From a virus, in the UHGV virus genome UHGV-1347488: DNA of 27,147 nucleotides; one strand, written 5' to 3'. Shown here one piece after another: positions 10,878 to 27,147 of this stretch. The translations under genes were made by a program, and so were the position numbers. Each line of letters begins with the position of its first letter. Position 1 is the stretch's first letter. Under the pieces are notes generated by a model that ran no database searches, was not told the DNA's origin, and worked only from the letters and a program-made list of their open reading frames with translations.

Positions 10878-12098
10878 TTACGCCAACTGTTTTCCTCTAG
10901 CGGAATAAACTTCTGCCCCGGTCAGACCATCAACACACTGTTCAGTGATAAGCACCCTCTTTGCACCCTTCAAGTCTGGCACAGAAAACATAACATCTTG
11001 CATGGCTGACTCAATGATGCTGCGCAGACCTCTTGCACCAGATTTTTGCTTAATTGCTTTTTCCGCAATTTTCCTTAAAGCTTCGTCTGAAAACTCCAGA
11101 TTGACCTTATCCAACTTCATCAGTTCGGCATACTGTTTGGTCAGTGCATTCTTCGGTTCTGTAAGGATACGAAGCAAAGCATCTTCATCAAGTGGCATTA
11201 AGGTTGCCAACACCGGAATACGCCCCATTAACTCAGGAATTAGTCCGTAGTGGACTAAATCGGCATCAGTTATTTTGCTGAAATCGAAACTATCTGAAGG
11301 TGATGTGTTCACTGAATTGAACCCGATGGAATTACCAGAAGATTCCTGACCTACGATTTTCTCAATCCCATCAAATGCCCCACCAACGATAAATAGAATG
11401 TTGGAAGTATCCATACGCACTGTAGCCGCATTTGGGTGTTTGCGTCCGCCGCTTAGCGGTACATCAGCTATGGTTCCCTCCAGAATCTTTAAGAGTGCCT
11501 GTTGTACTCCTTCACCGGAAACATCACGAGTGATAGAAGTGTTCTCGCCTTTTCTGGAAAGCTTATCAATCTCGTCAACGTAAACGATCCCCCGCTGTGC
11601 CAGGTCAAGATCGTGATTGGCGGCATCATATAAGCGGAGTAGGACATTCTCGACATCCTCGCCAACATAACCAGATTCGGTCAGACAAGTGGCATCAGAC
11701 ATAGCAAAGGGAACGCCTAAGAATTTTGCCAGTGATTGAACCAGATATGTCTTACCGCTTCCTGTTGGCCCTACAAGCATGATGTTTGACTTCTGGATTT
11801 CTACACAGGATTTTGATTTCTGTGAGATGCGCTTGTAATGATTGTAAACCGCCACAGACAGAATCTTCTTTGCATCGTTCTGGCCGATGACATACTCGTC
11901 AAGATGCTTCTTAATCTGACTAGGAGTTGCCAACTTGAAGCTGTTTGATTTTGCGGATTCTTCCTTGTCCTGAAATGCTTCTTCTGCTTGCATAGAACAC
12001 TCACGGCAGAGACAGCCATATTTACCCTTGATGAGATAGTCAACCTGAGACTCGTCCTTGCCGCACATAAAACAGTAGTTAATGCGTTTTGTTGCCAT
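10878..12098 (-). CDS. clpX: ATP-dependent Clp protease ATP-binding subunit ClpX (phage-borne)
   Basis: N-terminal C4 zinc-binding domain (CFMCGK…CLCRECS), Walker [17 protein letters not shown] motif, Walker B VYVDEIDK, sensor and arginine-finger region (SGARGLR); ATG with RBS AAAGGAGAG. Confidence 0.9.
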
Positions 12099-12118: not shown

Positions 12119-12934
12119 CTAGTACATGTCAAAATACATCTTCTGTTTGTTCTTGAATGTTAATGTATATTTTCTAATGGAAGTAACCCAGTCTGCCTTA
12201 GACATTTCAATAGATGATATTTGCTTTTCAAATACTTCAATAAAGCATTCAACCTTATTATCACTGTCTTCCCATCCATGCTTAAATGCAATTTTGTTAG
12301 AATAAAAACGAATTGGTTTTGTATCAAACACTAAATCCTGTTTGATTCTGATATTATGATCAAAGTATGTAACCGTGATATTCGGACGGTACATATCCTG
12401 ATTGTTCTTTAACCGCTTAACAAATTCATCCCACCATGTCGTACCGCATTGTTCCATTCTTTGAATATAAGCAAAAAATTTTCCAATAATTACATTGATA
12501 TTTTCATCCAAACATTTTTTATATGCATCTGGATAGTCTCTGGCATAAATTTCATTATTGCTCATACCACTGTAACTAATTTTTCTGCTCTTATGGAGCA
12601 TATCCTTAATCAACTTATATAAATTATCATATAGCTCTTTTGTGAGAAGTCCGGTCTTTGATGCACATTCAATTAACAACTTTTTGACTTCACTATTTTT
12701 CACCATTTTTGCAATTTCATCATTATTCAATGTACAGAACTGATACGTCTTTCCACTATATAAATATCCACATTTAGGATACAACTCTCCTTCTCGATAA
12801 TAAAAATCCATTGGTATATAATTTCGACAACCGATGCGGCTCTCTCTGTCATGGTCATGGTATTTCTGACACACGCCATATAATCTATTTAATTTACACA
12901 TATCACACAATTCTTTTTCTACTAATAAAAACAT
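12119..12934 (-). CDS. Hypothetical Cys-rich protein (271 aa), first gene of the ClpX operon
   Basis: ATG with RBS AAGGAGAAAGG; N-terminal Cys/His cluster (CDMCK…CQKYHDHD…C); stop 21 nt before the ClpX start. Confidence 0.7.
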   Translation of the reverse strand: MFLLVEKELCDMCKLNRLYGVCQKYHDHDRESRIGCRNYIPMDFYYREGELYPKCGYLYSGKTYQFCTLNNDEIAKMVKNSEVKKLLIECASKTGLLTKELYDNLYKLIKDMLHKSRKISYSGMSNNEIYARDYPDAYKKCLDENINVIIGKFFAYIQRMEQCGTTWWDEFVKRLKNNQDMYRPNITVTYFDHNIRIKQDLVFDTKPIRFYSNKIAFKHGWEDSDNKVECFIEVFEKQISSIEMSKADWVTSIRKYTLTFKNKQKMYFDMY

Positions 12935-13940
12935 AATGCCTTTCTCCTTTATTTTGATATATGTATATAGAAGATTCTCTATCTGGAATCTTGTTTTATC
13001 GTGATGATGAAGGTTACGGCAAATTTACCAGAACCTTTGTATGGGGATCGGGTTTACCAAATTCGGTAAAGTTGGTTTATCATGCTCCAATTATGGATAA
13101 TATTATGTAAACAAAATAGACATATCCAGAAATGGACATTAATCTTCGATATCTATTTTTGCTATTTGTCCGCATATTTCCCATCTGTCCGTATATCCAC
13201 CATCGGGAACAGAACATTAAGAAACACCTGTATTTCCTAGCGTTTCTCATCGTACCAACTAGAAACTGAATCATCTGCCAACGCCAGACTAGCACTCTGA
13301 GCCAAAACAGTCTTAATGTCTTTAATTCCCAGTATTTATATAGGATTTAAGCATTTCCAAGTAAATTCAGGCTTATCGGTAGTGACATCGCAAAAAGGAA
13401 GTAAATCCTTACCTTTTCAGCATTGGTATCCCATAAATTGAACATCTAAAAATTCAAAAATTTTATACTTTTGACCGTAAAACCCTTGTAATCCTTACAT
13501 TTTTACGATACCGATTTTCTTTCCGAAGTCTCCATGATTTTTCACATTTTTGCGATAAACCTATCCGGCACGATTTCTGGCCCAGTTATTCCAACGCTCA
13601 CACTTAGCTTCTGCTTTCTCCTGTGTATTAAATACACACCGTCTACGGATACCAACACAAGAATCAGTATCAGATACATGAATCTTTACTCTTAGATTCT
13701 CCTTGCCTAGATCAGATACAACAATTCCAGTCTGCACCTTCCAGATGCGTCGATTCTTCCGTTTAACCAGAAACCTTTGAATGAACCACACCTGCTGTCC
13801 CTCTGTAAATACCAACTGAATCACTCTCCTTTTGATTTGGACATTTTGTTTATGTCTAAATTTGCACGATAGCTCACCCAAATGAGCCTTATTTTACTGG
13901 ACTTTAGACACATTCTATAGGGAAAAATGGGACCATGGAA

Positions 13941-14305
13941 TTTGCATTATCCAAAGTCCTACAAAGCTAGTAAATAAGCCATTTTTACGATTATATATAC
14001 GCAAAATTCATACCTATCATTTTGCATTATTCCGTTCATTTCATACATTGTTCACTCATTGAATTTTTAAAATTCTTATTGCTTTGCCATCGAAAATGTG
14101 CTAAAATAAGTTCAACTAAAAAGATTATGCAAATGATTTTTTAAGTTATTTTTTTGCATTATAGAAAGTCGAGAAACCCTTGATTTTACTAGCTTTTAGA
14201 CACAATTAACATGCAAAATTCATACCATGGATTTGCATTATAGAAAGTCGGAAATCCCTTGTAATTACTGGGTTTTGGTGACAATTAACATGCAAAATTC
14301 ATACC
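13941..14305. repeat. Array of about 74-bp direct repeats with 5-bp spacers (period about 79 bp); candidate origin or iteron/promoter array
   Basis: Units 13941..14014, 14153..14226 and 14232..14305 each start TTTGCATTAT and end (A/C)GCAAAATTCATACC; spacers ATGGA/TATCA; a diverged longer unit at 14020..14152 and a partial unit at about 13900..13940. The last two units are about 85% identical. Confidence 0.7.
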
Positions 14306-14342
14306 TATGTATAGAATGTATTATATACCGATAGGTATACGT

Positions 14343-16250
14343 CTAAGCCATTAGCTTAATGGTAATATCAATATCATCTTTACTCTTATCAATTCCAACC
14401 ACTTTATCAGTATTAGGATTATCAACAATCACACCACCATCATTACAAGTATTATCATTATACTTATTAGTGTGTTTTTGCGAGTAAATATTATACCAAT
14501 TTCCTTTATCACTTCTATTCTGTATCACATCAATACACTGCGCAGATTGCAGGTTCTTAATTGCTTCAATAATGTTCGGTTTTCCGAAATGAAGAATCCT
14601 ATCCATTTCCTCAATCGTACATGCACGACCATTTCTGATGTTGTTTACGATACACAGAAATACCTTAAATTCATTCTGTGTAATCTGCTTCGCAATGAAC
14701 GCTCTTGCCGCACTGTAGTAAAACTCAATATACTTATCATTAAAGTCTTTCAATCCTCTTTTGATTTTAATTTTCGTCAAATCAAAGGAATTTTTTGACT
14801 TGTTTTCCGGCTCTACTAATTCAATACAATGATGCGCTACCAAGCGTTCTAAAGTATCTTTAAATGTTCTTATATCCATGCAAAGTTGCCATTTCCCATG
14901 TATTTTGTACTGCATTTTCATCTTCAAATTTCTAATTGTAAACGGTGTTTTAGAACCGCTCTTGATGTATTTATAAAGGATCGTCATAATCAGATATTCA
15001 AATCCGCTCATGCTGATGTCCTTGTCATTTCTCAGCCGATTATCCGTCAACAGCTTCTGTGACATCTTCACGCCAATATCTTCCTGAATGGAAATAACTT
15101 TCTTCTGAACAGCTTGCATACAATGGAGTTTGTCGCACTGCGCCTGTACCATCTTTTTCACACGTTCATCCGGTATCTGCTCCCAACAACCATTTAAACG
15201 GTAAATGTTTTCATGATCCAGATATGCGTCAATATCTTTCTTTACCTCATTTGAATTCTTCGGTGGTCTACACCTGGTATTCCAGTCAAGACAGATTTCA
15301 CGAACTTTTGATTCTGTGTATCCGTCATATCTCAGCATGGAAACAATACGGCCTAACCAAGTATTGCGCTCACCCTCGTCTGCTCCCTCACGAAGAACTT
15401 TTTCAGTACATAAACACGGATATGTTTTCAGATTAAGGCCATCACCGGAATAATCCCATTTTTCCAACGGTTTGCTTTCTAGTTGGAACTGTTCTTTTTT
15501 CAGTTCGTTTTCTACTCTTCTTCTGATAAATGCGGTGTCCATAGGGTGATAACCTGCCACTTGATTATCATGCTTCTTGTAATGGTCAACTTCCTTTACA
15601 AGCGGAAACTTGCCGTTTTCATCTGGATGTTTGCGGTTATAGGTGCATGGGATTCTGGCTACCTGTGTCACCTTGCAAGCGTTTGTATCTGCTCCTACTA
15701 TCTGGCAAATCATCTTGTTCAGTTCTGATAAATCTCTGACCTTACAAGTCGGTTTCACAATCACATAGAAGTGGTATCCATGTCCAGAATCATACACTGC
15801 ATGGACAAATAAATCTGGTAATTTATCCCTAATCAGCTGCCGAAATTCTTCTACACTGTGGAGATTTTCATGGTCTTTTTTATCGAAATCAATGAATAAA
15901 ACCCTCTGCTGTCTCATATTGGCTTCACGCCTATGTAATTCATTTTTGCGGTCATATTTTACTGTTGCAAGTGCATTATAAATATGATAATTGTGTCTGT
16001 ACTTCATGATACACTCAACGTACTGGTCAAAATTTTTTACATAGCGGTGGAACTTAATCTCGTTTCCATCTTTATCTAATGCCGGATTACCCTGTTCATC
16101 CGTTTTTGCAATGAACAAACAAATAAATTCTTTTTCTTCCAGTTTGGAAGGGTATAACATCTCATAGTATCTTTTTAAATGATTGCTAATAGTAGTACCT
16201 TCTTTCTTACCATTCTGTCGGTAGTAAAATTGTTGTTCTTGTGTCCTCAT
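14343..16250 (-). CDS. Archaeo-eukaryotic-type primase-polymerase (PrimPol-like replication protein)
   Basis: 635-aa ORF with AEP motifs in order: VLFIDFDKKD (DxD), DSGHGYHFYV (sxH) and ARIPCTYNRK (R-x-P-G/C-x-N); large C-terminal domain. The start has a weak RBS and is overlapped by the upstream ORF. Confidence 0.65.
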   Translation of the reverse strand: MRTQEQQFYYRQNGKKEGTTISNHLKRYYEMLYPSKLEEKEFICLFIAKTDEQGNPALDKDGNEIKFHRYVKNFDQYVECIMKYRHNYHIYNALATVKYDRKNELHRREANMRQQRVLFIDFDKKDHENLHSVEEFRQLIRDKLPDLFVHAVYDSGHGYHFYVIVKPTCKVRDLSELNKMICQIVGADTNACKVTQVARIPCTYNRKHPDENGKFPLVKEVDHYKKHDNQVAGYHPMDTAFIRRRVENELKKEQFQLESKPLEKWDYSGDGLNLKTYPCLCTEKVLREGADEGERNTWLGRIVSMLRYDGYTESKVREICLDWNTRCRPPKNSNEVKKDIDAYLDHENIYRLNGCWEQIPDERVKKMVQAQCDKLHCMQAVQKKVISIQEDIGVKMSQKLLTDNRLRNDKDISMSGFEYLIMTILYKYIKSGSKTPFTIRNLKMKMQYKIHGKWQLCMDIRTFKDTLERLVAHHCIELVEPENKSKNSFDLTKIKIKRGLKDFNDKYIEFYYSAARAFIAKQITQNEFKVFLCIVNNIRNGRACTIEEMDRILHFGKPNIIEAIKNLQSAQCIDVIQNRSDKGNWYNIYSQKHTNKYNDNTCNDGGVIVDNPNTDKVVGIDKSKDDIDITIKLMA

Positions 16251-17198: not shown

Positions 17199-17567
17199 TT
17201 ACTGTGCAAAATAATCTGCCAGTTCTTCCAGACTCATAGGAGTCTCGCCCGCCTGTAACACACTGCTGCTATCTGCAATCAGCCAGCCGGAAGTACCCAA
17301 CACATGCTCTTTTGCTGGCACAAGGTGTAATCCGCTCTTCTTGGCTTTTTCCTCCATCTGTCCCAATGTCAGAATTGGATTCACCTTTACTGCTCTACTT
17401 CCTCTTTCTGAGTTCTCAGCTTCAAAATCTACAATGTCATCATCATCTAAGGTGCGGAATCCCTGCATCTGAATATCGGTCTGATGCACGAAATAATCCT
17501 TGTGGTTATCACCAGTGATGAATCCCCATCCTTTAGTCTTGTCGAATAATTTAACTGTTCCTCTCAT
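17199..17567 (-). CDS. Cold-shock domain protein (CspA-like N-terminal domain with about 55-aa C-terminal extension)
   Basis: MRGTVKLFDKTKGWGFITGD…DYFVHQTDIQ matches the RNP1 (KGFGFI) and RNP2 (VFVHF) motifs of cold-shock proteins; RBS AAAGGAGA 8 nt upstream; about 260-bp untranslated region upstream. Confidence 0.75.
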   Translation of the reverse strand: MRGTVKLFDKTKGWGFITGDNHKDYFVHQTDIQMQGFRTLDDDDIVDFEAENSERGSRAVKVNPILTLGQMEEKAKKSGLHLVPAKEHVLGTSGWLIADSSSVLQAGETPMSLEELADYFAQ

Positions 17568-17830
17568 GATGCTTGTCTCCTTTTTTATAATTTTTTACAT
17601 ACCAGATTCTGTGAACTACATCGGCAATTGAATTACCGAGCATCTGATTACGAAGCATAGCTCCGTAGCTTCAGAGGTGCGTCCATGACACCCGTACTGC
17701 TACCCAGATGGGTTACACAGCTACTTTTATTGTTTTTGTACTACTCAGCCCAGTTACGGCATGATACTTTCTCAAATTGAATAACCGAGGATTTCCACTT
17801 GTTATCAATTTCTTCTGCCACTTCTGGAAA

Positions 17831-18052
17831 TTAAGACATCTTTACAAATTTGTATCCAGTGACTTTGATAGCCCTAGGACTATTTTTTCTGCTGATTAAC
17901 CCTAATTTTTCCAGTTGATTTAGTTTCTTAAAAACTATAGATACGCAGCATTCCGCTTCTTCTGCGATCTCTCTGACTGTTGGTGGATAACCGTTTTCTT
18001 CCAGGTAATCACAGATGAATTTATAAATAAATTCACCCTTATCTGTTATCAT
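17831..18052 (-). CDS. LexA-N-terminal-domain-like winged-HTH protein (73 aa, no peptidase domain)
   Basis: FIYKFICDYLEENGYPPTVREIAEE…VFKKLNQLEKLGLISRK…RAIKV parallels the LexA DNA-binding domain (…G.PPT.REIA…HL.ALE.KG.I…R.I.L); RBS AGAAGGAG. Confidence 0.6.
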   Translation of the reverse strand: MITDKGEFIYKFICDYLEENGYPPTVREIAEEAECCVSIVFKKLNQLEKLGLISRKNSPRAIKVTGYKFVKMS

Positions 18053-18115
18053 GCGTGGCTCCTTCTTGTTTCAATTTTGATGGGTGCCGTTTTCACAGCA
18101 CCCTTGCATTTATAA

Positions 18116-18628
18116 TTACAGTTCTTTTAAAATCTCGCCTAAAATTTCCAGGAATTCTTTGCCATATTGAACCGACTTTTTCTCACAGTATGTAAGATTT
18201 TCCTGTAAAACAGACTGCATATACTCATCAATTTCTTCTAAGTCAATCCCAAATTTCTGCTTCAATGCATCGGATAATTTCATTTTTTTCTCTGCCATAC
18301 AAAGTACAAACGTTTCAGTTTCTTCTCTCGTCAGATCAAAATACCGATACACTGCCTCCATTACCTGCAACAGTTTTTCACATGATTCTGTGTTGTACTG
18401 TTCCTCTTTGAATCTCGCCATATAAAAGGCTTTATCCACATCTGTTAAACAATATTGCTGCATCACTATTTTGGGAAAAATCAGCATCTCTTCGGTAATT
18501 CTAACGCCTTTAGTTTTCATGTAAAGAAGGGACTTTTTTATTACTGTAGTTGCTTCCAGTAATGTATAATCCTCATCTTCGTCTAATAAAAACTCTCTCC
18601 ATACTTCTTTGATATTTGTTTTTTTCAT
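18116..18628 (-). CDS. Hypothetical protein (170 aa from the RBS-supported ATG)
   Basis: ATG (MKKTNIKEVW…) with AAGGAG 9 nt upstream; the ORF-track start at 18679 is a TTG without an RBS. Confidence 0.6.
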   Translation of the reverse strand: MKKTNIKEVWREFLLDEDEDYTLLEATTVIKKSLLYMKTKGVRITEEMLIFPKIVMQQYCLTDVDKAFYMARFKEEQYNTESCEKLLQVMEAVYRYFDLTREETETFVLCMAEKKMKLSDALKQKFGIDLEEIDEYMQSVLQENLTYCEKKSVQYGKEFLEILGEILKEL

Positions 18629-18684
18629 AATGCAAAACTCCTTTTCTTTATTTATTTTATATACAGCTGATGTCATCAAGGCAT

Positions 18685-18831
18685 CTACTTAACTGTCTTC
18701 TTTACTGGTTCTTCCGTCCATCTCACAGAGCCATCAGAATTGATGGGAATTTCAACTTTTTTGCCGCTGTCATATTCCAGAACTTTTGATAATCTGCCAT
18801 TATCGGCCTTAATCCAAATATGCTTAATCAT
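18685..18831 (-). CDS. Small hypothetical protein (48 aa), absent from the ORF track
   Basis: Translated by hand: MIKHIWIKADNGRLSKVLEYDSGKKVEIPINSDGSVRWTEEPVKKTVK; ATG preceded by AAGGAGA at 7 nt; fits exactly between flanking genes. Confidence 0.4.
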   Translation of the reverse strand: MIKHIWIKADNGRLSKVLEYDSGKKVEIPINSDGSVRWTEEPVKKTVK

Positions 18832-18843
18832 TATCTTGTCTCC

Positions 18844-19269
18844 TTAGATATACTGTCTGACTTCCTCTAAATCCTTTGGATTATTCGGATTGTAATAGGA
18901 ACAGTAAATCTTACGGCTTCCATGCCTGGTCTCCATCACAGCAACCAACTCTGGATTGTCAAGCTCATCGTAACCGATTGCAACTACTCTCGTAACAGAT
19001 AAAGCAGCGTTGTTCCGCTCGTATACCGCAAGATTGAACATCATGTTATAGATGTTGCCGAAAGCGAACTGTTTCTGATCCGGCGTGCAGTTCAAAAAAT
19101 CCTTCCAACTGTTGATTTTTGCCAGTTCATAATTGTGAGTCAAAATGATGTTCAATGACTCTACAGCCAATGGATTCTTTAAATGGCTGCTAATCTCTCC
19201 ATTTACATATCTGATGGGTCTTGATTTGGGAATCAGGTCATTTTTGGTAAAAATCTTATAATTCAGCAT
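18844..19269 (-). CDS. Hypothetical protein (141 aa)
   Basis: ATG with RBS AAAGGAGA 6 nt upstream; no recognisable motif. Confidence 0.65.
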   Translation of the reverse strand: MLNYKIFTKNDLIPKSRPIRYVNGEISSHLKNPLAVESLNIILTHNYELAKINSWKDFLNCTPDQKQFAFGNIYNMMFNLAVYERNNAALSVTRVVAIGYDELDNPELVAVMETRHGSRKIYCSYYNPNNPKDLEEVRQYI

Positions 19270-19338
19270 CGTGTATCTCCTTTAGGAAGTGCGGCAAGCG
19301 GAATCCCCACTCACCACACTGTATACTAGATTCTCTAC

Positions 19339-20031
19339 TTACTCCGGTTTCTTGCAGTAAACCAACTTGACCGTGGTAAACGGCTGACCGTAAGGGAAGA
19401 TACGGAAGCAGCGCATATCTCCGGTGGTCTTGGACTGAAACTCGTTGCAGCTGTCATCGAATACAGTCAGGGCATAATTGGTACCATCAGCATTGACCCG
19501 GAGTTTCAGATTGTCCTCATCACATTCATCAATGAAAGCATTCCCGCCGTAGATGTTCATGTTCAGCGCAAAGCTGTCAGACACATTAACAGATACCAGA
19601 TAGTAACCGTTCGTGCCGTGAAGTGCTTCGTCCATGAAGGTCATCATATTGTCCAGGTCAACTTCATGCCAACCTTCTAAATCATCGGCTGACCACTCGT
19701 TAAAGAATGTCAGGCACAATTTCTGATCGTCCGGCAAGTCGAATTGCAGAATCAAATAGTTGCCCTCTTCTTCATCTTCTTTCAGGGTAGCGTTGGTCAT
19801 ATCTTCATATCTGATTGCGATACCGTTTGTACCGTCAAGAGTGCCGGACTGGTAGAACTCAATCTTATCCTCAAACAGCTCACATCTGTTGGCATACAGC
19901 TTTACTACATCGTCACCCTCAGCGTCCGTTACAACAACCTGTGTGATATTGTAGGCTTCAACTAAGGATTTGATGTCCTCTGCATTAATCTTTTTGGCAC
20001 TGGTTTTAACTCTCTTTACTACTTCGTTCAT
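19339..20031 (-). CDS. Hypothetical acidic protein (230 aa) downstream of the tubulin-like GTPase gene
   Basis: ATG with RBS GAGGAAA; no recognisable motif; its position could correspond to an accessory partition factor, but that is unproven. Confidence 0.65.
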   Translation of the reverse strand: MNEVVKRVKTSAKKINAEDIKSLVEAYNITQVVVTDAEGDDVVKLYANRCELFEDKIEFYQSGTLDGTNGIAIRYEDMTNATLKEDEEEGNYLILQFDLPDDQKLCLTFFNEWSADDLEGWHEVDLDNMMTFMDEALHGTNGYYLVSVNVSDSFALNMNIYGGNAFIDECDEDNLKLRVNADGTNYALTVFDDSCNEFQSKTTGDMRCFRIFPYGQPFTTVKLVYCKKPE

Positions 20032-20072
20032 GTGTTATTTCCTCGATTTTCCTATATATTGGTCGTTCCGTC

Positions 20073-21179
20073 CTACTTACTGATTCTTCTGGCTTTCAGT
20101 TGCTCTAACGCTGACAGGCCGCTACTAGTCGGCTTATGCTCTGGTTCCTTCTTGACCGCAAACACACTGGATGTTCTGGCGGTGCGCACCTGTGTAAGAG
20201 CCTTCAAAGAGTTCTGCACGCTCTCAGCTTCTTTTTCTACGGATTCTGCTAACGCATCAATCCGGCTGTACGGCATCACCAGGCCGCTAAGGATCACCAC
20301 ATTTTCACCGGAATCTGAAACATATCCGTGATATTCGGTCGGTGCTGTACCTACGGCTTTCCGGAGTTCCGCAATATCAATCTTGCTCTCTTTTGCTGAT
20401 ACCGCTTCGGAAATACCCATAATGCTGACCGTCTTATCTTCCCGCTGTGCAAAAATATTGCTCTCACGGGTCAGAATATCCACGATATAACCCGTTGTGC
20501 CATTGGCTGCATTAGTGGCAACGATTACAGAAAATGACGGACAATGTAAGCAGCTTTCAATCTCTGCCAAATCCATATTGCCGTCCTGGGATTTATTGTT
20601 AATGCAAAGCACTGCTGTCATCAGTCTGGCGAATGCTCGGTTGATCTGCAACTTCTCACCGGAGTTATTGTCCAGCATGAAAATGCTTCCCAAACTCGGC
20701 TTTAATTCCTCGATTTCCTCAAAGGTCTGTCTGGCATTATCTCTGATTTTTAAGGATTCCGTATCTGCCGGAATAACCACAACCAGACACACTTTGTATC
20801 CCATCTCTAACAGGATTCTTGCCAACATTGGCCCCATTGCAGAGCCGGTTCCACCGCCCATTGAAAATGCGATAAATACTGTGCTGCCCTCGATTATGTA
20901 CTGCTGCAATTCATCCAGAATACTATCAACATTTTCCGCAAGTGCATCTAAGCTGCGCTCCCTGTTGCCTGCTGCCCCATTACAGTTTTTCACATGGATT
21001 TTGTGGGACAGATTAACCGCCGATAAATCCTCGGTACTGGTGTTGATACCAACAAAGGATACGCTGTCTTTGCTGCCATCCAGTTCCATAACCTTCTTTT
21101 CAACCTCAGAAATGACCTGGCATCCGCACTGACCGCATCCGATAAAGGTAGCTTTTAATCTCGTATTTAATTTTTTCAT
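20073..21179 (-). CDS. Tubulin/FtsZ-superfamily GTPase, TubZ/PhuZ-like (putative partition or positioning cytoskeletal protein)
   Basis: T1-loop-like GCGQCGCQ near the N-terminus and tubulin signature-like FSMGGGTGSAMGP; internal ATG (MKKLNT…) with RBS AGAGGAG 7 nt upstream, chosen over the track's 21206 start; begins 4 nt after the stop of the upstream small HTH gene. Confidence 0.7.
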   Translation of the reverse strand: MKKLNTRLKATFIGCGQCGCQVISEVEKKVMELDGSKDSVSFVGINTSTEDLSAVNLSHKIHVKNCNGAAGNRERSLDALAENVDSILDELQQYIIEGSTVFIAFSMGGGTGSAMGPMLARILLEMGYKVCLVVVIPADTESLKIRDNARQTFEEIEELKPSLGSIFMLDNNSGEKLQINRAFARLMTAVLCINNKSQDGNMDLAEIESCLHCPSFSVIVATNAANGTTGYIVDILTRESNIFAQREDKTVSIMGISEAVSAKESKIDIAELRKAVGTAPTEYHGYVSDSGENVVILSGLVMPYSRIDALAESVEKEAESVQNSLKALTQVRTARTSSVFAVKKEPEHKPTSSGLSALEQLKARRISK

Positions 21180-21183
21180 AGAC

Positions 21184-21444
21184 TTACTCCTCTTGTTCCA
21201 TCTCATCCATCCATTGAATTCCTGTGGAAGTAATATAGTAGGTTTTGGCGTTTAACTGGTTCATACCATATTTGATGTATCCCAGATTAATCAGCTCCTT
21301 TAGATGCTTATAGATAACCTTGTAAGAGTATTTGATACCAATCTCTGCAAGACCCTCTTCAATCATCTTCTGAGTAGCCGCAACTAACTTGCTTCTTGCT
21401 TCCGCATGGAATAGGACGTTGAGAATTTCGTAATTTGTACGCAA
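21184..21444 (-). CDS. Small winged-HTH protein upstream of the tubulin-like gene (TubR-like by position and size)
   Basis: 86-aa ORF with TTG start and AGGAAGG RBS; helix-wing segment YKVIYKHLKELINLGYIKYG…NAKTYYITSTG; arrangement resembles tubR-tubZ operons. Confidence 0.45.
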   Translation of the reverse strand: MRTNYEILNVLFHAEARSKLVAATQKMIEEGLAEIGIKYSYKVIYKHLKELINLGYIKYGMNQLNAKTYYITSTGIQWMDEMEQEE

Positions 21445-21804
21445 ATAAAATCATCCTTCCTATATTCAGTTGTAGTGTTTCTTCTATATAAAGTGTGGGA
21501 AATGCCGCAGCAGAACGCTGACAGCAATTTGACAAATAAAAAAAATCATGATAATATACTTTTGAACATTTGTTACATGGTCGTTTACCAGACGATCACG
21601 TTATTACCATGAAAGCCTTCTGTCATCACGGTGTTACCAGCACCAGACAGGAGGTTTTTCATTTATCTTACCGCTCACTATATATCAAATTGGAACTCTG
21701 TTCCTATCCTGTTTGTTTATTATTGGTTCTGTGTTTCATCTCTGTTGTACCTCTTTTCCTTTGATGGGTTAAGTATAGCACTGTATGATAACCTAGTCAA
21801 GTAG

Positions 21805-21947
21805 TTTTGTATTATTTTTATATTTTTTGTATTATAATATTTTTATGTGTATTATTTTATTGTATTTGCACCAATTTTGTATTATAAAATAGTGTTTTCC
21901 TATTTTATTTAATATCTTCGTTGAAAAAAAACGGATTTTGTATTATT
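21805..21947. repeat. Iterated TTTTGTATTAT(T/A) motif, 5-6 copies (candidate operator or centromere-like repeats)
   Basis: Copies at 21805, 21825, about 21847, 21875 and 21936; the last overlaps the putative promoter of the 21971 gene. Confidence 0.5.
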
Positions 21948-21949
21948 CT
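21921..21949 (+). promoter_or_regulatory. Candidate sigma70-type promoter for the 21971 gene (-35 TTGAAA, 17-bp spacer, -10 TATTCT)
   Basis: Hexamers read directly; followed by RBS GAGGTGAG and the ATG at 21971. Confidence 0.3.
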
Positions 21950-21970
21950 AAACATATGAGGTGAGATAAA

Positions 21971-23083
21971 ATGCTAGGAAAAAAAATTATTTTAAATGAT
22001 GCTATCCGTGATTCTATCACTAGATTTAGGAAAAGCAAAATGAAAGAACACCCCGAATTAACCGCAGATGGCATTTCAGAAAAAATAGGAAGATCTAAGT
22101 CTTGGTTATCTCAAGTAGNNNNNNNNNNNNNNNNNNNNNNNNNNNNNNNNNNNNNNNNNNNNNNNNNNNNNNNNNGAGCAGATTTCAATTTTAAATATGA
22201 ATATGATGCAGTAGCCAAACGTGTAGATAATGAAATCATGTTAATAAATGCATTCATTAAACATGGTATTGCAGATGAAAACGGTAATATACTTGATTTC
22301 CATGAGAGTCTACGATTAGAGCAATGTAGAGGTTTTCTTCGACAAGCCGGAAAAATGACAGATTGTTATATTAAGGAATATTTACAAAACCCAATTCAGG
22401 AAATTGAAAAAAAAATTAAAACTGAGATTCATAATGTTTTAATTGAAATTGTTCGATGGATAAACAGAGCTTTTGATGACACTGCTGATTTATTTTCTGA
22501 TGAAGTGTCAACTAAAAATTTATATTGTTTACTGGAAACGGCATATACTATTTTTAATGCTCATTGTGATTATTTCGGCCTAAATCCTTTAACCGCCACA
22601 GATACTGATTTAAAAACCTTAAAGAACAAATTAAATACGGATTGTTTTATAAAACCACGAACGGTATTAAAACCTCTTGATGATTATACAGAATCAGAGT
22701 TCAAGGAAGTGGTTAAAAATTTTTCTTCCGAAGAATATATGCAATGGAAAAACAAGCGCATTTATATTGGTGATGATCCATTTCCTATGACTGTTGGTTT
22801 TATTGATAGTAAAAAAGAACGGCATACCCCACTACACTATATAACTTATCCAGATTTAAATAAAGCTACCGGATTATCTGAAAAGGAATATCTCTATATC
22901 ATTAAGCAAGTTTATTTACAATTTGATATTTTTTATAAAGATTGTCAATCGTTAAGAGATGATTTGGAATTTTATAAAGATGAAAATGATCAGTATTACG
23001 ATGAAATTCAAGAATTAAATGAACGTATAAATGAACTCACCAATAAACTTAATACTGAGTCAGAGAAGCCACCAGAGGAATAA
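21971..23083 (+). CDS. HTH-domain protein with large C-terminal domain of unknown function (370 aa; reading frame interrupted by an N run)
   Basis: RBS GAGGTGAG; N-terminal XRE-like segment (…LTADGISEKIGRSKSWLSQV…); C-terminal coiled-coil-like region; very AT-rich codon usage. Confidence 0.65.
   Translation: MLGKKIILNDAIRDSITRFRKSKMKEHPELTADGISEKIGRSKSWLSQVXXXXXXXXXXXXXXXXXXXXADFNFKYEYDAVAKRVDNEIMLINAFIKHGIADENGNILDFHESLRLEQCRGFLRQAGKMTDCYIKEYLQNPIQEIEKKIKTEIHNVLIEIVRWINRAFDDTADLFSDEVSTKNLYCLLETAYTIFNAHCDYFGLNPLTATDTDLKTLKNKLNTDCFIKPRTVLKPLDDYTESEFKEVVKNFSSEEYMQWKNKRIYIGDDPFPMTVGFIDSKKERHTPLHYITYPDLNKATGLSEKEYLYIIKQVYLQFDIFYKDCQSLRDDLEFYKDENDQYYDEIQELNERINELTNKLNTESEKPPEE
22119..22175. other. 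Run of 57 N (assembly gap or masked segment) inside the 21971..23083 ORF
   Basis: Literal n characters; length is a multiple of 3, so the frame is preserved. Confidence 0.95.
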
Positions 23084-23147
23084 TCCCCTAGTGGCTTCTT
23101 TCATGTCACACCTTATTTCAAATGTCTCCATGTTTTAGGTCATAGAA

Positions 23148-23183
23148 AAGACACCCTGGGTTACGGGGTGTCTTGGTTTTGTT
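23148..23183. terminator. Hairpin between convergent genes (AAGACACCC / loop / GGGTGTCTT, then GGTTTTGTT); likely a bidirectional terminator
   Basis: 9-bp stem followed by a T-rich tract on the plus strand; located between the stops at 23083 (+) and 23189 (-). Confidence 0.5.
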
Positions 23184-23188
23184 ATTGG

Positions 23189-24055
23189 TTATTTCAAATA
23201 CAATGGATGGCTATTATCGTCCGCTTCCTTCTCAAAGTCACCATTGAATTTATATTGACCCTGGTGATCGGGTTTACTATTATAAACTTCATAGCCACCA
23301 TTTTCAAAATCTGTGGATAAATACACATCCAATTTGGGACTTTTAAAAACCTGTCTTTTAGGAGATTGTCCATCTCTCTTTTTAGCTTTTCGCTTATTTA
23401 AAGCGGTAAGTTTAGAATCGTATGTATACTTATTTCGTTCTGCAACTTCCATTCCAATTTTATGAAGGGTTGCTATTTTATCATCAATTGAATTAGAACG
23501 TAATATTTCAGATCTCCATTCGTTATATCCATTACACAATACAGATGCTGGAAACTTATTATTAAATGATGGGACAGAAATTTGTATTAATTCATCTTGT
23601 TGAATCCATCTTTTAATATTTGAATCAACTTCCTGATCAAAATTTCCTATAAAAAATATTTTATCATTCAATTGTTTTTGTTGTAACTCTCTATGCCGTC
23701 TATCTTTAATGTATGGGATTACAACAATATTATCTTCTGATATACTTAGAATATATTTTATTTTTCCAACAAAAGCCTTCGTAAAACCGAGATTATTCAA
23801 AGCAATGTCTTCAGCTTCTGACACAAGACCTGCATCATATTTATCTACCTTATGAGTTTTTAAAATTGAATGATTTACCTCTCTGAACCTGGAAGATCTG
23901 TTATATGACTTTGTGGAAGTTGCAAAAGGTTCAAACATAACTAATTTTGCATTGAAAAAATTTTCAACAACTAATAAAAAATCATTCAAGTATTTTTGCT
24001 GTTCAATGCTTGTTTGATAAAATTTTTCATCGATAAGTATTTTATATGTTGGCAT
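23189..24055 (-). CDS. Unknown-function partner protein of the ABC ATPase (288 aa; candidate effector of a two-gene defence-like module)
   Basis: ATG (MPTYKILIDEKF…) with RBS CAGGAGAG; start lies 1 nt after the ATPase stop codon; basic C-terminal region (KRKAKKRDGQSPKRQ); no HNH-type Cys/His pattern. Confidence 0.7.
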   Translation of the reverse strand: MPTYKILIDEKFYQTSIEQQKYLNDFLLVVENFFNAKLVMFEPFATSTKSYNRSSRFREVNHSILKTHKVDKYDAGLVSEAEDIALNNLGFTKAFVGKIKYILSISEDNIVVIPYIKDRRHRELQQKQLNDKIFFIGNFDQEVDSNIKRWIQQDELIQISVPSFNNKFPASVLCNGYNEWRSEILRSNSIDDKIATLHKIGMEVAERNKYTYDSKLTALNKRKAKKRDGQSPKRQVFKSPKLDVYLSTDFENGGYEVYNSKPDHQGQYKFNGDFEKEADDNSHPLYLK

Positions 24056-24056
24056 A

Positions 24057-25487
24057 TCAACTCTCCTGTTTCTGCAAATTTCTATATCCAACATCTATGA
24101 TTTTAGCTGTTTCATTTGAAAATTGATAAAAGAAATTTTCATTTTCACATAATGCCCCGTCAACTTCATCAATCACTATAGGTGTTATAAAAGACATACC
24201 TAATTCATTCTGATCTACAAAATAGATTTGAATTTTATCACGTACCTCTACATCCTCCATATAGCGTCTAACAATTCTATTTACAAAATGATCACTATGA
24301 GTTTCAATAACAACAGATTTATCATGTGTGGAGAGGGATAATAAAAAATCTGCCATTCGCATTTGCATTTTAGGATGCAGGTGAATTTCTGGCTGTTCCA
24401 AAATCAAGGTTTGATTCGAAGACATAATAATTCCTTCGGCTAAAATTGGCAATGACTGACTAATTCCAAATCCAACATCAACCAAATTATGTTTATTTAT
24501 TCTTACTTTTACTAAATCTTGTTGTCTATTATCAAGGAATAGCGTACCTAATTCTAAATATTGCATCCATGAACCAATTAAATCAATAAATTTATTTGAT
24601 TCACATACTGTCTGTGACGGCACATAATTATCTTCCGATTCAGGAGCCATAACACCTACCACAGTATTTTTTTGTTTATTCTTCAATAACAGAGGGGTAT
24701 CTTCACCGGATACACCAACATCAACAACCTTTTTGTCTGCGATATAACGTCTCATAGGATTTTCTCTCAATGGAGCAATATATTGTAATTGAATATACTG
24801 AGATGGAAGAATACTAAAAATTGAAGTTAAAGTTGGAATAAACAATTTTGTAGAAGGATTCATACGTTCTTCGTAAATACTATTTAAAGTCATATTACGA
24901 AAATAACAGATAGCATTGTTAATATTAAAATCTCCTAAATTCCCAGCAACATCTGGGATTTGTGTTCCGCGAACAGTATATGTCTTTTTCCCATTTCTGC
25001 ACAATTCAATTCGTGAATTGATTGAGCCAGTTTTTAATTCTACTTCAATATTAACATCAATGGCATGTAATTTATTTGCATATAAAGAAGCGCCACTATT
25101 ATCAATAGAAACACAATAATTGATGATGAATTTTTCGACATCGTTTCTATAATATAATCTATTCAAATCACGAAACTGAACGTTATCTTTTGAAGCGGTT
25201 TCTTTTGAACGTTTAAGTTCAAAAGTATTGCTAATCGTAAAGAAATTTTCTGAATGTTGATCACACAAAATCTCAGAAAATGTTCCATTGTCTATATATT
25301 TACCGTTAAATAACATTTGGTCGGATGTATTAGTATCTTCAAAAGTTTGCTTTAACATCAGCAAGCTTTTTAAAATAGAACTTTTACCGCTGCTATTTAC
25401 ACCGCACAATACGGTCAGTGGCGCAATCTCTATATCGGTCTTATCTTTAAAGCACTTATAATTTTCCAAACTTATAGATTTCAGCAT
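24057..25487 (-). CDS. AAA15/AAA21-type ABC ATPase (OLD/AriA/PtuA/AbiLi-like)
   Basis: N-terminal I.SI.L.NYKCF with Walker A GVNSSGKS; Q-loop-like QYIAPLRE; signature-like GFGISQSLPILAEG; Walker B LILEQPEIHLHP; H-loop ETHSDH. ATG (MLKSISL…) preceded by GGAGGT at 6 nt. Confidence 0.8.
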   Translation of the reverse strand: MLKSISLENYKCFKDKTDIEIAPLTVLCGVNSSGKSSILKSLLMLKQTFEDTNTSDQMLFNGKYIDNGTFSEILCDQHSENFFTISNTFELKRSKETASKDNVQFRDLNRLYYRNDVEKFIINYCVSIDNSGASLYANKLHAIDVNIEVELKTGSINSRIELCRNGKKTYTVRGTQIPDVAGNLGDFNINNAICYFRNMTLNSIYEERMNPSTKLFIPTLTSIFSILPSQYIQLQYIAPLRENPMRRYIADKKVVDVGVSGEDTPLLLKNKQKNTVVGVMAPESEDNYVPSQTVCESNKFIDLIGSWMQYLELGTLFLDNRQQDLVKVRINKHNLVDVGFGISQSLPILAEGIIMSSNQTLILEQPEIHLHPKMQMRMADFLLSLSTHDKSVVIETHSDHFVNRIVRRYMEDVEVRDKIQIYFVDQNELGMSFITPIVIDEVDGALCENENFFYQFSNETAKIIDVGYRNLQKQES

Positions 25488-25729
25488 TCCCATACCTCCA
25501 TAATCTCCTTTCATTTTACCAAAATTTACCAGTTACTACAATGAGAACGTGTGTATATAGATTCGATATTTTAAAATATTTTTTTATGAAAGAAGCTGCC
25601 GGAATATACCAACGGCTCCCGCATTATTCCTTTCCAATCTTCCACTTAGCAAGTTCTTCCCCCAGGACCCAGCTCAATTCTTTGTACTGCTCCGGTGTGA
25701 GGGTCGTGCCGCATTTTTCTTCCACATTC

Positions 25730-26194
25730 TTAATGATTGACTGTTTCAGTCTTCCTTTTTCGTCTATTGGCATTCTGCTGCTCCCTTCTAGTTTTTCTTC
25801 TGGCTTTTTCCTCTGCTGCTTTCTGGTTCAGATAGTTACACTTTTCCTGTCCTTCTTCCTCGGTGGAAAAGATAAATCTTTCTTCCGCTTCGGTTTTATG
25901 TCTGTTCCAGTGTTCCAGTTCATATTTGATTTCAAAATGCCCTCTAGCCGTTGCTCTCACATAAACCTCTGTAATTCTTGCTTCATCACAATGATAACCA
26001 TGCGTATAAGCAACGTATCTACCAGAACCATGACAGTTAGAACATTTACTTTCTTTTCCGGCTGAACCGTCTGGATCAGTGCTAATCGCCACTCCTTTGC
26101 CCTCGTACACAGGACAAACAGCCAGTTCAAACATCTGGTCATTCGTTACCAAATATACGATGTCTCCGAGATTGAATTTAGTTTTGATATTCAT
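25730..26194 (-). CDS. Hypothetical protein with Cys/His cluster and basic C-terminal tail (154 aa from the RBS-supported ATG)
   Basis: ATG (MNIKTKF…) with AAGGAG 10 nt upstream; CSNCHGSGRYVAYTHGYHC; C-terminus rich in R/K. Confidence 0.6.
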   Translation of the reverse strand: MNIKTKFNLGDIVYLVTNDQMFELAVCPVYEGKGVAISTDPDGSAGKESKCSNCHGSGRYVAYTHGYHCDEARITEVYVRATARGHFEIKYELEHWNRHKTEAEERFIFSTEEEGQEKCNYLNQKAAEEKARRKTRREQQNANRRKRKTETVNH

Positions 26195-26310
26195 GGTTTT
26201 TATGCTCCTTTTCCTTGTTTTAGAGCACAAGCCCAAGTTGGACATGTGTTATCTCTTGAAGAGATAGCAAAGCAGTTAGGGACTTCCGCTCTGTATATTA
26301 TTATGATTCT

Positions 26311-26724
26311 CTACTGGAACAAACTTTTTTCCAACTGCTGCAACATACACATCTTAAACACTTTATAAATTGGGTCATCAGTATTTATTCTGTATTCATC
26401 AGCAGAAAGTCTCTCCCCATCGTTGTTTGCATCATATATCCATACATAAATACCATAGTTAATTTCATCATCATCTATATCAATCTCTATGTATGGTTCC
26501 ACTATATACGATTTTAGAATCAGTGCTGTATTATCAGATGCCGTTTGAAGCTTTATTCTTCCTAAAGCATCACGAATCATCTCTTCTGCTTTATTTCTAA
26601 TTTCTTCCGGAAAGTCAGGTTCATCGGTTATTGGAAAATAAATTGTTTCTGGCCCACATCCTTCTGCCATACCGTATTTCCGAATTTCTTTAAATCCAAA
26701 ATCACTTAACATCTTTTTCACCAA
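26311..26724 (-). CDS. Hypothetical small acidic protein, tandem paralog A
   Basis: 137-aa ORF; shares YFP(I/V)TD(E/D)PDFP(E/A)E(I/L)R and a C-terminal DP(I/L)Y…QLE..LF with the next gene. Confidence 0.65.
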   Translation of the reverse strand: MVKKMLSDFGFKEIRKYGMAEGCGPETIYFPITDEPDFPEEIRNKAEEMIRDALGRIKLQTASDNTALILKSYIVEPYIEIDIDDDEINYGIYVWIYDANNDGERLSADEYRINTDDPIYKVFKMCMLQQLEKSLFQ

Positions 26725-26742
26725 ACCTTTCTAGTTTCATTC

Positions 26743-27147
26743 TTATCTAAATAAGTGCTGTTCCAGTTGCTTTATCATATAGTCCTTAAATGGCAGATAC
26801 AACGGATCACTGGTTTCTATCTCGTACTGCGTCCAGGCATCAATCTCAGTATCATCACAGATACCAACTTGAATATCATAGCCAGGTAAATTATCACTAT
26901 TTCTGCAATAGACCTCTATTCGTGCCGATAGCAGCAATTTGGAACATACAGGATCAATACCATATCTGGCCTGTATCTGGCGCAGGACTTCATCAATGAG
27001 AGTTTCTGTCTTGGCTCTAAGTTCCGCCGGAAAATCTGGATCATCGGTTACAGGAAAATACAGTGTACTTTTGCCAGTAAAATCATCGGTAAAATAATTC
27101 AACTGCTCTACTGCCTGGAATCCATAATCATTTATCATCTTCCACAC
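26743..27147 (-). CDS. Hypothetical small acidic protein, tandem paralog B (start at or just beyond the window edge)
   Basis: 134-aa ORF paralogous to 26311..26724; the listed first codon is GTG at the window end and an ATG (MINDYGF…) lies 3 codons in, so the start is uncertain. Confidence 0.6.
   Translation of the reverse strand: MWKMINDYGFQAVEQLNYFTDDFTGKSTLYFPVTDDPDFPAELRAKTETLIDEVLRQIQARYGIDPVCSKLLLSARIEVYCRNSDNLPGYDIQVGICDDTEIDAWTQYEIETSDPLYLPFKDYMIKQLEQHLFR

Follow-up and report, generated by a model that had tools for sequence, protein, structure and literature searches.

The genes considered here are most closely related to Menshen, the anti-phage system NsnA-NsnB-NsnC (Millman et al. 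2022, cited in PMC12065111; domain analysis in PMC12065111). In the published model, a tetramer of the ATPase NsnB clamps the PIN-like domain of NsnC between its C-terminal tails, an arrangement that resembles PARIS and Septu, where the state of the ATPase controls a nuclease. NsnC consists of a PIN-like N-terminal domain and a toxin C-terminal domain, with the inPIN domain reported to be hypervariable, whereas NsnB is recognizable by deviations in its catalytic motifs, namely E-N in place of D-E in Walker B, Arg in place of the Q-loop Gln, and GxG in place of SGG (NAR 2025, PMC12065111). Here we analyze a 27,147-nucleotide (nt) stretch of the virus genome UHGV-1347488 (hereinafter the window, which denotes this whole stretch at its full length). 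It contains an AT-rich island at 21780-25530 with a helix-turn-helix (HTH) protein gene on the plus strand and, convergent to it, a pair of minus-strand genes for an ATPase and a partner protein. The island consists of two independently exchangeable parts, a regulator with its repeats and a two-gene module of the anti-phage type (Table 1); judging from the encoded proteins, this cargo appears to be a variant of Menshen that lacks NsnA.

The ATPase-effector pair and its relation to Menshen

The ATPase matches AAA_15 (3.4e-27) and AAA_21 in Pfam, and its best match in PADLOC is NsnB (4.3e-65, 218.7 bits), with an alignment that covers profile positions 1-343 of 345 and runs to the end of the protein, at residue 473. 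The lower-ranked PADLOC profiles are HEC-03B (150 bits), PDC-M55A (126 bits) and AriA (111 bits), and the match to PtuA in NCBIfam reaches 30 bits against a cut-off of 500. By inspection, the protein contains a Walker A motif (GVNSSGKS), a Walker B-like motif (LILEQPE), APLR, a GFG signature and ETHSDH with the H-loop His. It shares the atypical motifs of NsnB, that is, E-Q/N rather than D-E in Walker B, Arg at the position of the Q-loop Gln and the GxG signature, the second Walker B residue being Gln as opposed to Asn in the description of NsnB (E-N). The likely start codon, ATG at 25487, is preceded by a ribosome-binding site (GGAGG, 7 nt upstream), and an identical product of 476 amino acids (aa) is present in public gene calls (P0054, L041 and L047). 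A search for homologues of the ATPase yields 2613 clusters at E <= 1e-20, a set that certainly includes other AAA_15 families. Two related phages contain a short stretch (L003:16113-16688 and L007:15745-16320) with similarity to the ATPase that is confined to residues 5-51 at the N-terminus and 354-483 at the C-terminus of the latter; the stretch is located in a different slot, between homologues of the window genes at 17199-17567 and 10878-12098, and may be a mini-ATPase or a remnant.

The partner gene is located directly downstream of the ATPase gene, with its ATG 1 nt after the ATPase stop codon, and the two form a translationally coupled operon; the gene order, with the effector following the NsnB-type gene, and the tight coupling are the same as in Menshen. 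Residues 192-297 of the partner match three NsnC profiles of PADLOC (best 1.1e-9). The AlphaFold2 model of the partner, built with an alignment of 26 homologues, is confident (predicted local distance difference test, pLDDT, 91.7; predicted template modelling score, pTM, 0.88) and consists of two domains, in the NsnC layout of a PIN-like N-terminal domain and a nuclease C-terminal domain. Foldseek retrieves the colicin E3 RNase domain with a probability of 0.99-1.00 and a template modelling (TM) score of 0.48 on the target, over 60 columns at 20-23% identity, with E-values of only ~0.01-0.03. Weak matches to the Pfam family PF09000 (colicin E3 'Cytotoxic') are found in 20 of the 26 members of the partner family (best 4.5e-4). 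The NCBIfam scan gives nothing for the partner; neither AriB/Toprim nor HNH domains are detected in PADLOC or Pfam; and searches of PDB sequences with the profile of the partner family, either at full length or for the C-terminal domain only, yield no match even at E <= 10. The hhalign comparison of the C-terminal profile with an approximate colicin E3 sequence shows no meaningful alignment and, for this reason, the match of the D..HG..E.Y motif to colicin E3 that is seen by eye is not used as evidence. On the strength of the profile matches and the model, we classify the partner as a predicted NsnC-type effector with a putative RNase C-terminal domain. Compared to colicin E3 and CdiA-CT(ECL), toxins that cleave 16S rRNA, sequence similarity is only marginal, there is no immunity protein gene, and the domain is fused to a PIN-like domain in a protein that is paired with an ATPase.

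PARIS (AriA/AriB), which is typically carried in P2/P4-type prophage hotspots, and Septu (PtuA/PtuB) are similar to this pair in that each consists of two genes, with an ABC ATPase of the AAA_15/AAA_21 type controlling a separate nuclease. However, the partner here is neither a DUF4435/Toprim protein like AriB nor an HNH protein like PtuB, and the AriA and PtuA profile scores of the ATPase are much lower than that for NsnB. The pair also differs from canonical Menshen. The three-gene system of a member of Cytophagales (L033) reaches 386 bits for NsnA and 377 bits for NsnB, compared with 219 bits for the window ATPase, which, because of insertions, is ~130 aa longer than the 345-position NsnB profile; L033 also encodes NsnC, whose C-terminal domain is 34% identical to that of the window partner and belongs to the same domain family. 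Gut Clostridia harbour the cassette described here on phages and other mobile elements, and no NsnA gene (ParB-DUF262 and ParBDB) adjoins it. The gene upstream of the ATPase (25730-26245) shows only a faint zinc-finger match, with no DUF262 and no PADLOC match. No DUF262 gene is found among the window proteins or within the retrieved 5-8 kb flanks of the pair in L021, L023, L013, L014, L034 and L038. The pair is found in unrelated prophages (L021/L031, L023/L024 and L013-L016), always as two genes, and likewise as two genes in an element resembling a plasmid or an integrative and conjugative element (L034-37) and in a Roseburia chromosome (L038). Altogether, an adjoining NsnA is missing here and in more than eight other contexts, and in all contexts looked at, this ATPase subfamily as a rule comes in the two-gene form, with no DUF262 gene.

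Outside the window, the same phage encodes a 365-aa DUF262/GmrSD_N protein (L017:3298-4395), 5.6 kb upstream of the ATPase. The only PADLOC match of this protein is NsnA (1.8e-17, 61.7 bits); it contains the motifs QRxxxW and DGxQR and is conserved, at 64% identity, in the relatives L002-L005, which lack the pair. The gene sits between two sigma-factor-like genes, with two HNH genes and a HEPN gene nearby, the latter paired with a nucleotidyltransferase gene in sister contigs (e.g., L019/L039).

Exchange of the pair and composition of the island

At least three divergent alleles of the pair are present in a backbone that is otherwise 99.6-100% identical, and the slot is an exchange hotspot. 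Exact-match look-up of a flanking protein identifies 24 contigs with the same backbone. We denote the window allele A (L041 and L047 are 100% identical to the window), that of the sister phage L019 allele B, and that of L040, L042, L043, L045 and L048 allele C; the latter accounts for 5 of the 10 backbone loci among the matches listed. In blastn alignments, the near-complete identity of the four full-length allele C loci (L040, L042, L043 and L048) to the window extends over 17457-23186 and 25345-27147, and between these flanks only a fragment with 70% identity aligns. The identical flank includes the terminator and the HTH gene (99.7% at the aa level), and the breakpoints fall at the stop codon of the partner and in the conserved N-terminus of the ATPase, just after the Walker A motif. 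The allele C ATPase (508 aa) is 41.7% identical to that of the window and still has NsnB as the best match, at 217 bits. For the allele C partner (300 aa), similarity to the window partner is not detectable, with 26% identity when the two are forced into alignment, and Pfam, PADLOC and PDB yield nothing; that it resembles RelE is an impression only. Given the near-identity of the flanks, the cassettes were exchanged rather than diverged in place, and in situ divergence is rejected as the cause of the low identity.

In the comparison of allele B with the window, identity in 100-nt segments is 91-100% outside the island and drops to 45-80% between ~21800 and ~25500. The ATPases are 63-64% and the partners 60-62% identical, the ranges reflecting the boundaries of the open reading frames (ORFs) and the alignment method. 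The most divergent regions are the PIN-like domain of the effector (40-43%) and the insert and tail of the ATPase (51-64%), and the conserved ones are the catalytic motifs of the ATPase (79-82%) and the RNase domain (86%). This pattern fits an ATPase-effector interface that is the fast-evolving part of the system; a hypervariable PIN-like domain and effectors that are shuffled between alleles are features shared with Menshen. In the more distant TubZ-bearing phages L001-L012 (TubZ 61-67% identical), the slot lacks the pair and contains only small genes without assigned function, and in other contexts of the HTH family it is occupied by YoeB/Phd (L027), ParE/Phd (L030), a DUF3990/PARP-like gene, or 231- and 283-aa proteins of no recognizable family. 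A gene elsewhere in the window (19339-20031, minus strand) is 57% identical to its counterpart in L019, with neighbours at 96-97%; this is a swapped gene with a GC content of 45%, and therefore exchange is not always accompanied by low GC.

The two convergent units are separated by a hairpin that is the top terminator-like match in a scan (9 sites versus 1.7 expected), is flanked by AGAAAA upstream and GGTTTTG downstream, and is retained in alleles B and C; we read it as a predicted bidirectional intrinsic terminator.

Table 1. Coordinates of the features of the island and of its phage neighbourhood in the window
Feature	Positions	Strand	Remarks
NsnB-type ABC ATPase gene (AAA_15/AAA_21)	24057-25487	-	476 aa from likely start M10; open frame to 25514
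NsnC-type effector gene (predicted), 288 aa	23189-24055	-	PIN-like N-domain and colicin-E3/CdiA-CT-like RNase C-domain (predicted); ATG at 24055
Exchange unit (Unit 2), replaced wholesale in allele C phages	23187-25344	-	from blastn; partner gene and ATPase from ~codon 48 to end
Hairpin, G+C-rich, 11 pairs, T-runs on both strands	23148-23174	.	between the two convergent stop codons
Unit 1, HTH regulator and upstream repeats	~21801-23130
XRE/lambda-cI-type HTH regulator gene	21971-23083	+	370 aa as read; 372 aa unmasked (P0035)
Five direct repeats, T(T/G)TGTATTAT (TTTGTATTAT repeats)	21806-21946	+	starts at 21806, 21826, 21846, 21876 and 21937
Small winged-helix TubR candidate	21184-21444
TubZ	20073-21206
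YonO-like two-barrel RNA polymerase (probable), 999 aa	6088-9087	-	Pfam RdRP PF05183 1e-14; phrog_8308 7e-148
Tape measure protein	18-4121

An earlier note, made from the letters of the window only, had described a compositional break at 21780-25530, with an HTH gene and a convergent pair arranged as found here, and had taken this break as a sign of separate horizontal acquisition. The break itself is confirmed by computation: the GC content is 30.3% in the island and 39.6% in the rest of the window. In sliding segments of 3751 nt, the minimum of the window begins at 21649 (0.3027), the lowest segment clear of the island reaches 0.350, against a median of 0.392; in the 500-nt profile, GC drops to 0.238 at 21751-22250 and does not exceed 0.35 until ~25500. 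The three genes of the island have a GC of 0.30-0.31 and the lowest third-position GC (GC3) among the 30 ORFs compared (0.20, 0.20 and 0.23, versus 0.29-0.56 for the other 27), and their synonymous codon usage differs from that of the rest (chi2 = 219, 41 degrees of freedom, p ~3e-26). The values of 45-50% that had been estimated for the tape measure, primase and tubulin-like genes turn out to be 41.5%, 36.9% and 46.2%, respectively. The window contains further, smaller AT-rich patches, in a gene at 12119-12934 (31.1%) and in the non-coding DNA at ~13750-14500 (28.6-32%). The former, on the minus strand, encodes a 271-aa orphan with no Pfam or PHROG match and no homologue in the related loci L001-L012, and is a candidate for a second cargo gene.

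Low GC is, however, a trait of both gene families, and neither a clock nor a proof of recent arrival. The GC content of the ATPase-partner pair is lower than that of its surroundings by 4-11 points in five other contexts, and that of the HTH family by 2-9 points in eight, including places where this family is a stable resident; together, the two are more AT-rich than the neighbourhood in 13 of the 13 contexts measured. Low GC is typical of accessory and regulatory phage genes in general. Because both families are AT-rich wherever they were examined, composition is weak evidence of recent transfer, and exchange is proven by the comparison of alleles rather than by composition. The inference of acquisition thus holds only in part: the compositional edges match the recombination breakpoints, but the break by itself says little. 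The proposal of a single three-gene cargo island gives way to two units, given that the HTH gene stays virtually unchanged where the adjacent pair is swapped and is positionally conserved in relatives. That the slot is a variable hotspot, which the note had put forward as a point to check, is borne out by the different cargo in relatives and by the collapse of identity inside the island between the conserved flanks of L019. Uniform composition, or the same genes in all relatives, would have spoken against an island at this place; composition is non-uniform and the cargo varies, so that the notion of an island stands.

The regulator, its repeats and the phage

The HTH gene is a resident regulator rather than cargo, even though one sister phage (L019) has swapped it. 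Its product consists of an N-terminal HTH, a helical middle domain, a long C-terminal helix (residues 306-366) and an acidic tail, and shows no match in Pfam, PHROGs, PADLOC or NCBIfam. A 57-nt run of N (22119-22175) is located inside the gene just after the recognition helix; across the masked stretch, the unmasked protein P0035, which is 2 aa longer than the product of the window ORF, reads ENGRLKSVKNEDFVKVYCVLYG. Homologues are 38-57% identical, with a near-invariant HTH segment. In L027, L029 and L030, they are divergent from tubR-tubZ, in the same position as in the window, and in L025/L026, they are found beside the integrase of an integrated prophage, or next to smpB of the host, at loci without an annotated tubulin gene.

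The direct repeats upstream of the HTH gene are spaced by 20, 20, 30 and 61 nt from start to start, the final copy being located 34 nt before the start codon. With at most one mismatch, the motif occurs 15 times, compared to 5.9 +/- 2.5 expected, and all four exact copies together with one single-mismatch copy cluster upstream of this gene. Several copies also precede every HTH homologue examined (L025, L027, L029 and L030), with the last one ~35 nt before the start codon. In L019, the repeats and the regulator are both replaced by unrelated sequences (a 355-aa gene and a 104-aa gene), whereas TubR retains 98.8% identity and the intergenic DNA hardly differs as far as position 21801. Because L019 retains TubR while losing both repeats and regulator, the repeats belong to the regulator and not to a TubR centromere; a role as tubC is rejected on these grounds and on the presence of the repeats in a prophage without tubRZ. 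The features expected of a cI-like repressor, that is, an XRE-type HTH, a gene divergent from the early operon, and repeated candidate operator sites in the intergenic region, are all present. The protein is probably a lysogeny or early-gene regulator, and the five TTTGTATTAT repeats are probably operator or autoregulatory sites that it is predicted to bind.

A second set of related sites lies apart from the island, in the AT-rich non-coding DNA at 13882-14342 beside the primase-like gene. This region contains a 79-bp tandem repeat of 1.9 copies (14153-14305) and four TTTGCATTAT sites (13941, 14021, 14153 and 14232) that are one base off the TTTGTATTAT motif, and could serve as an origin of replication or as another target for the HTH regulator. 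The 355 bp upstream of tubR (21445-21800) are ~97% identical in L019 and not AT-rich; at 21529-21557, they contain a perfect -35 element (TTGACA), a 17-nt spacer and TAATAT, and the region also has TTACCAG-like repeats. It could hold the tubC centromere, although the cluster of GTTACCAG-type repeats nearer tubR, considered as tubC, is not statistically significant. In some related phages, two tandem tubR-like ORFs are found upstream of tubZ (L001:3260-3762; L003-L005:9464-9953).

The element that carries the island is best explained as a temperate SPbeta-like phage of the human gut, with the island as its accessory, lysogeny-side block. The phage is marked as SPbeta-like by the product of the gene at 6088-9087, a probable YonO-like two-barrel RNA polymerase, and the window also encodes an AAA ATPase and a primase-like protein. 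Given the TubZ/TubR partition module, the phage probably persists as a plasmid prophage. Contigs that are identical to it, or nearly so, originate from metagenomes of the human gut, megablast of 19000-27147 yields no match in the GenBank phage or PLSDB plasmid collections, and a Rfam scan of the whole window detects no family. Next to the end of the window, two adjacent minus-strand genes (26311-26724 and 26743-27147) are paralogues with ~37% identity, that is, a tandem duplication.

Possible functions of the pair

It is well established that prophages have defence hotspots beside their regulators, and defence genes are found beside the repressor or in similar positions in lambda (rexAB beside cI) and P2 (the old/tin/fun hotspots). 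The island resembles these in having a defence-type set beside a phage regulator, presumably expressed in the lysogen and exchanged between similar phages, but differs in the proteins involved and in the SPbeta-like host phage with tubulin-based partition. We favour, with a probability of roughly 0.6, the interpretation that the pair is an abortive-infection defence of the lysogen that would stop translation through the colicin-E3-like RNase, the block as a whole being the regulator plus an NsnA-less NsnB-NsnC cassette; this preference stems from the homology, architecture and mobility of the pair, from the published Menshen model and from the divergence of alleles A and B at the presumed interface. 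Under this scheme, the XRE/cI-type regulator, transcribed divergently from the tubR-tubZ early operon, would bind the five repeats before its own gene. The ABC ATPase oligomer would keep the effector inactive via the C-terminal tail of the ATPase and the PIN-like domain of the effector until a cue from a superinfecting phage alters the state of the ATPase. The RNase domain would then be released or activated and cleave rRNA or another RNA of translation, and the halt of translation would abort the infection. The cassette would move between phages by recombination, with breakpoints in the conserved ATPase N-terminus and at the terminator, and would therefore confer a different effector and specificity on each lineage.

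Several observations weigh against this interpretation. The place immediately upstream of NsnB is not taken by a gene of the ParB-DUF262 plus ParBDB type, so that the proposed Menshen sensor is missing; automated tools would not call the pair a complete system. DUF3696, which in NsnB is the C-terminal helix onto which the N-domain of NsnC docks, is not detected by Pfam in the ATPase tail at E <= 0.01, and no promoter can be assigned with confidence. At the site where some relatives have DF(L/I/M)HGG, the partner of the window allele has DFENGG, which makes the catalytic chemistry of the effector uncertain. Finally, the toxin-antitoxin (TA) pairs that occupy the slot next to the partition system in relatives fit plasmid addiction equally well.

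Such addiction is the main rival reading, although on balance an unlikely one: the pair would be a TA-like module that kills cells losing the extrachromosomal prophage and so complements TubZ/TubR. The adjoining partition genes, the classical addiction pairs YoeB/Phd and ParE/Phd in the slot of relatives, and the predicted toxin-type RNase domain of the partner all agree with this view. However, the pair is also present where addiction would serve no purpose, namely beside the integrase of an integrated prophage (L021) and on a bacterial chromosome (L038), and its closest characterized relatives are defence systems. Moreover, TA systems in such slots often double as abortive-infection defences, so that the two roles are not exclusive.

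Two other possibilities concern the HTH protein. It is improbable that this protein is the counterpart of TubY, an HTH accessory protein of type III (TubZRC) partition systems (PMC7762940), and acts as a fourth partition component rather than as a lysogeny regulator. As in TubY, an N-terminal HTH and a long C-terminal helix occur together in this protein, and its gene adjoins tubR-tubZ, divergently, in the window, L027, L029, L030 and L040-48. TubY, however, has an HTH of the MerR type, ~200 aa and a lysine-rich tail that binds membranes, in contrast to the XRE/cI-type HTH, 370 aa and acidic tail found here, and the HTH family is also encountered at loci that lack tubRZ, an integrated prophage with an integrase encoding a 44%-identical homologue preceded by the repeats. 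A sensor or transcriptional controller of the pair, which would make it a three-gene system, is a very improbable role for the HTH protein. XRE-type HTH genes do adjoin the pair in most contexts (L013, L014, L023, L034-37, and L038, where an HTH-S24 peptidase is encoded), and NsnA proteins of Menshen often have extra DNA-binding sensor domains. Nevertheless, the gene is convergent with the pair across a terminator, its repeats are on its far side, 3.6 kb from the start of the pair, the family is found with other cargo and no pair (L025, L027, L029 and L030), the protein is almost identical where the pair has been swapped, and the neighbouring HTH proteins elsewhere have 124-254 aa compared to 370-372 aa here. 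The least probable alternative is a split three-gene Menshen in which the DUF262 protein of the phage serves as the NsnA sensor, as its sole PADLOC match and motifs might suggest; this is judged unlikely given a score far below the canonical one, the conservation of the protein in phages without the pair, the ~15 genes between the two, and the occurrence of the pair without DUF262 in the flanks of six loci elsewhere.

Returning to abortive infection, the distribution of the pair suggests that the ATPase-effector core can exist, and probably work, without a ParB-type sensor, which bears on the sensor-transducer-effector model. Tentatively, pairs of NsnB and NsnC without a sensor might form a family of self-sufficient two-gene defence systems, widespread among phages, integrative and conjugative elements and chromosomes of gut Clostridia, in which the variable insert of the ATPase and the PIN-like domain would sense the invader directly, and swaps of the whole cassette at a fixed point in the ATPase gene would change both the specificity and the effector of near-identical phages. 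The three-gene definitions of Menshen in current use would miss such cassettes. For annotation, the lesson is that one AT-rich block can mix a resident regulator and true cargo. The most useful product of this analysis is the near-isogenic series of alleles: at least three variants of the defence cassette in nearly the same backbone amount to a natural experiment that is suited for testing the determinants of specificity in Menshen-type systems.

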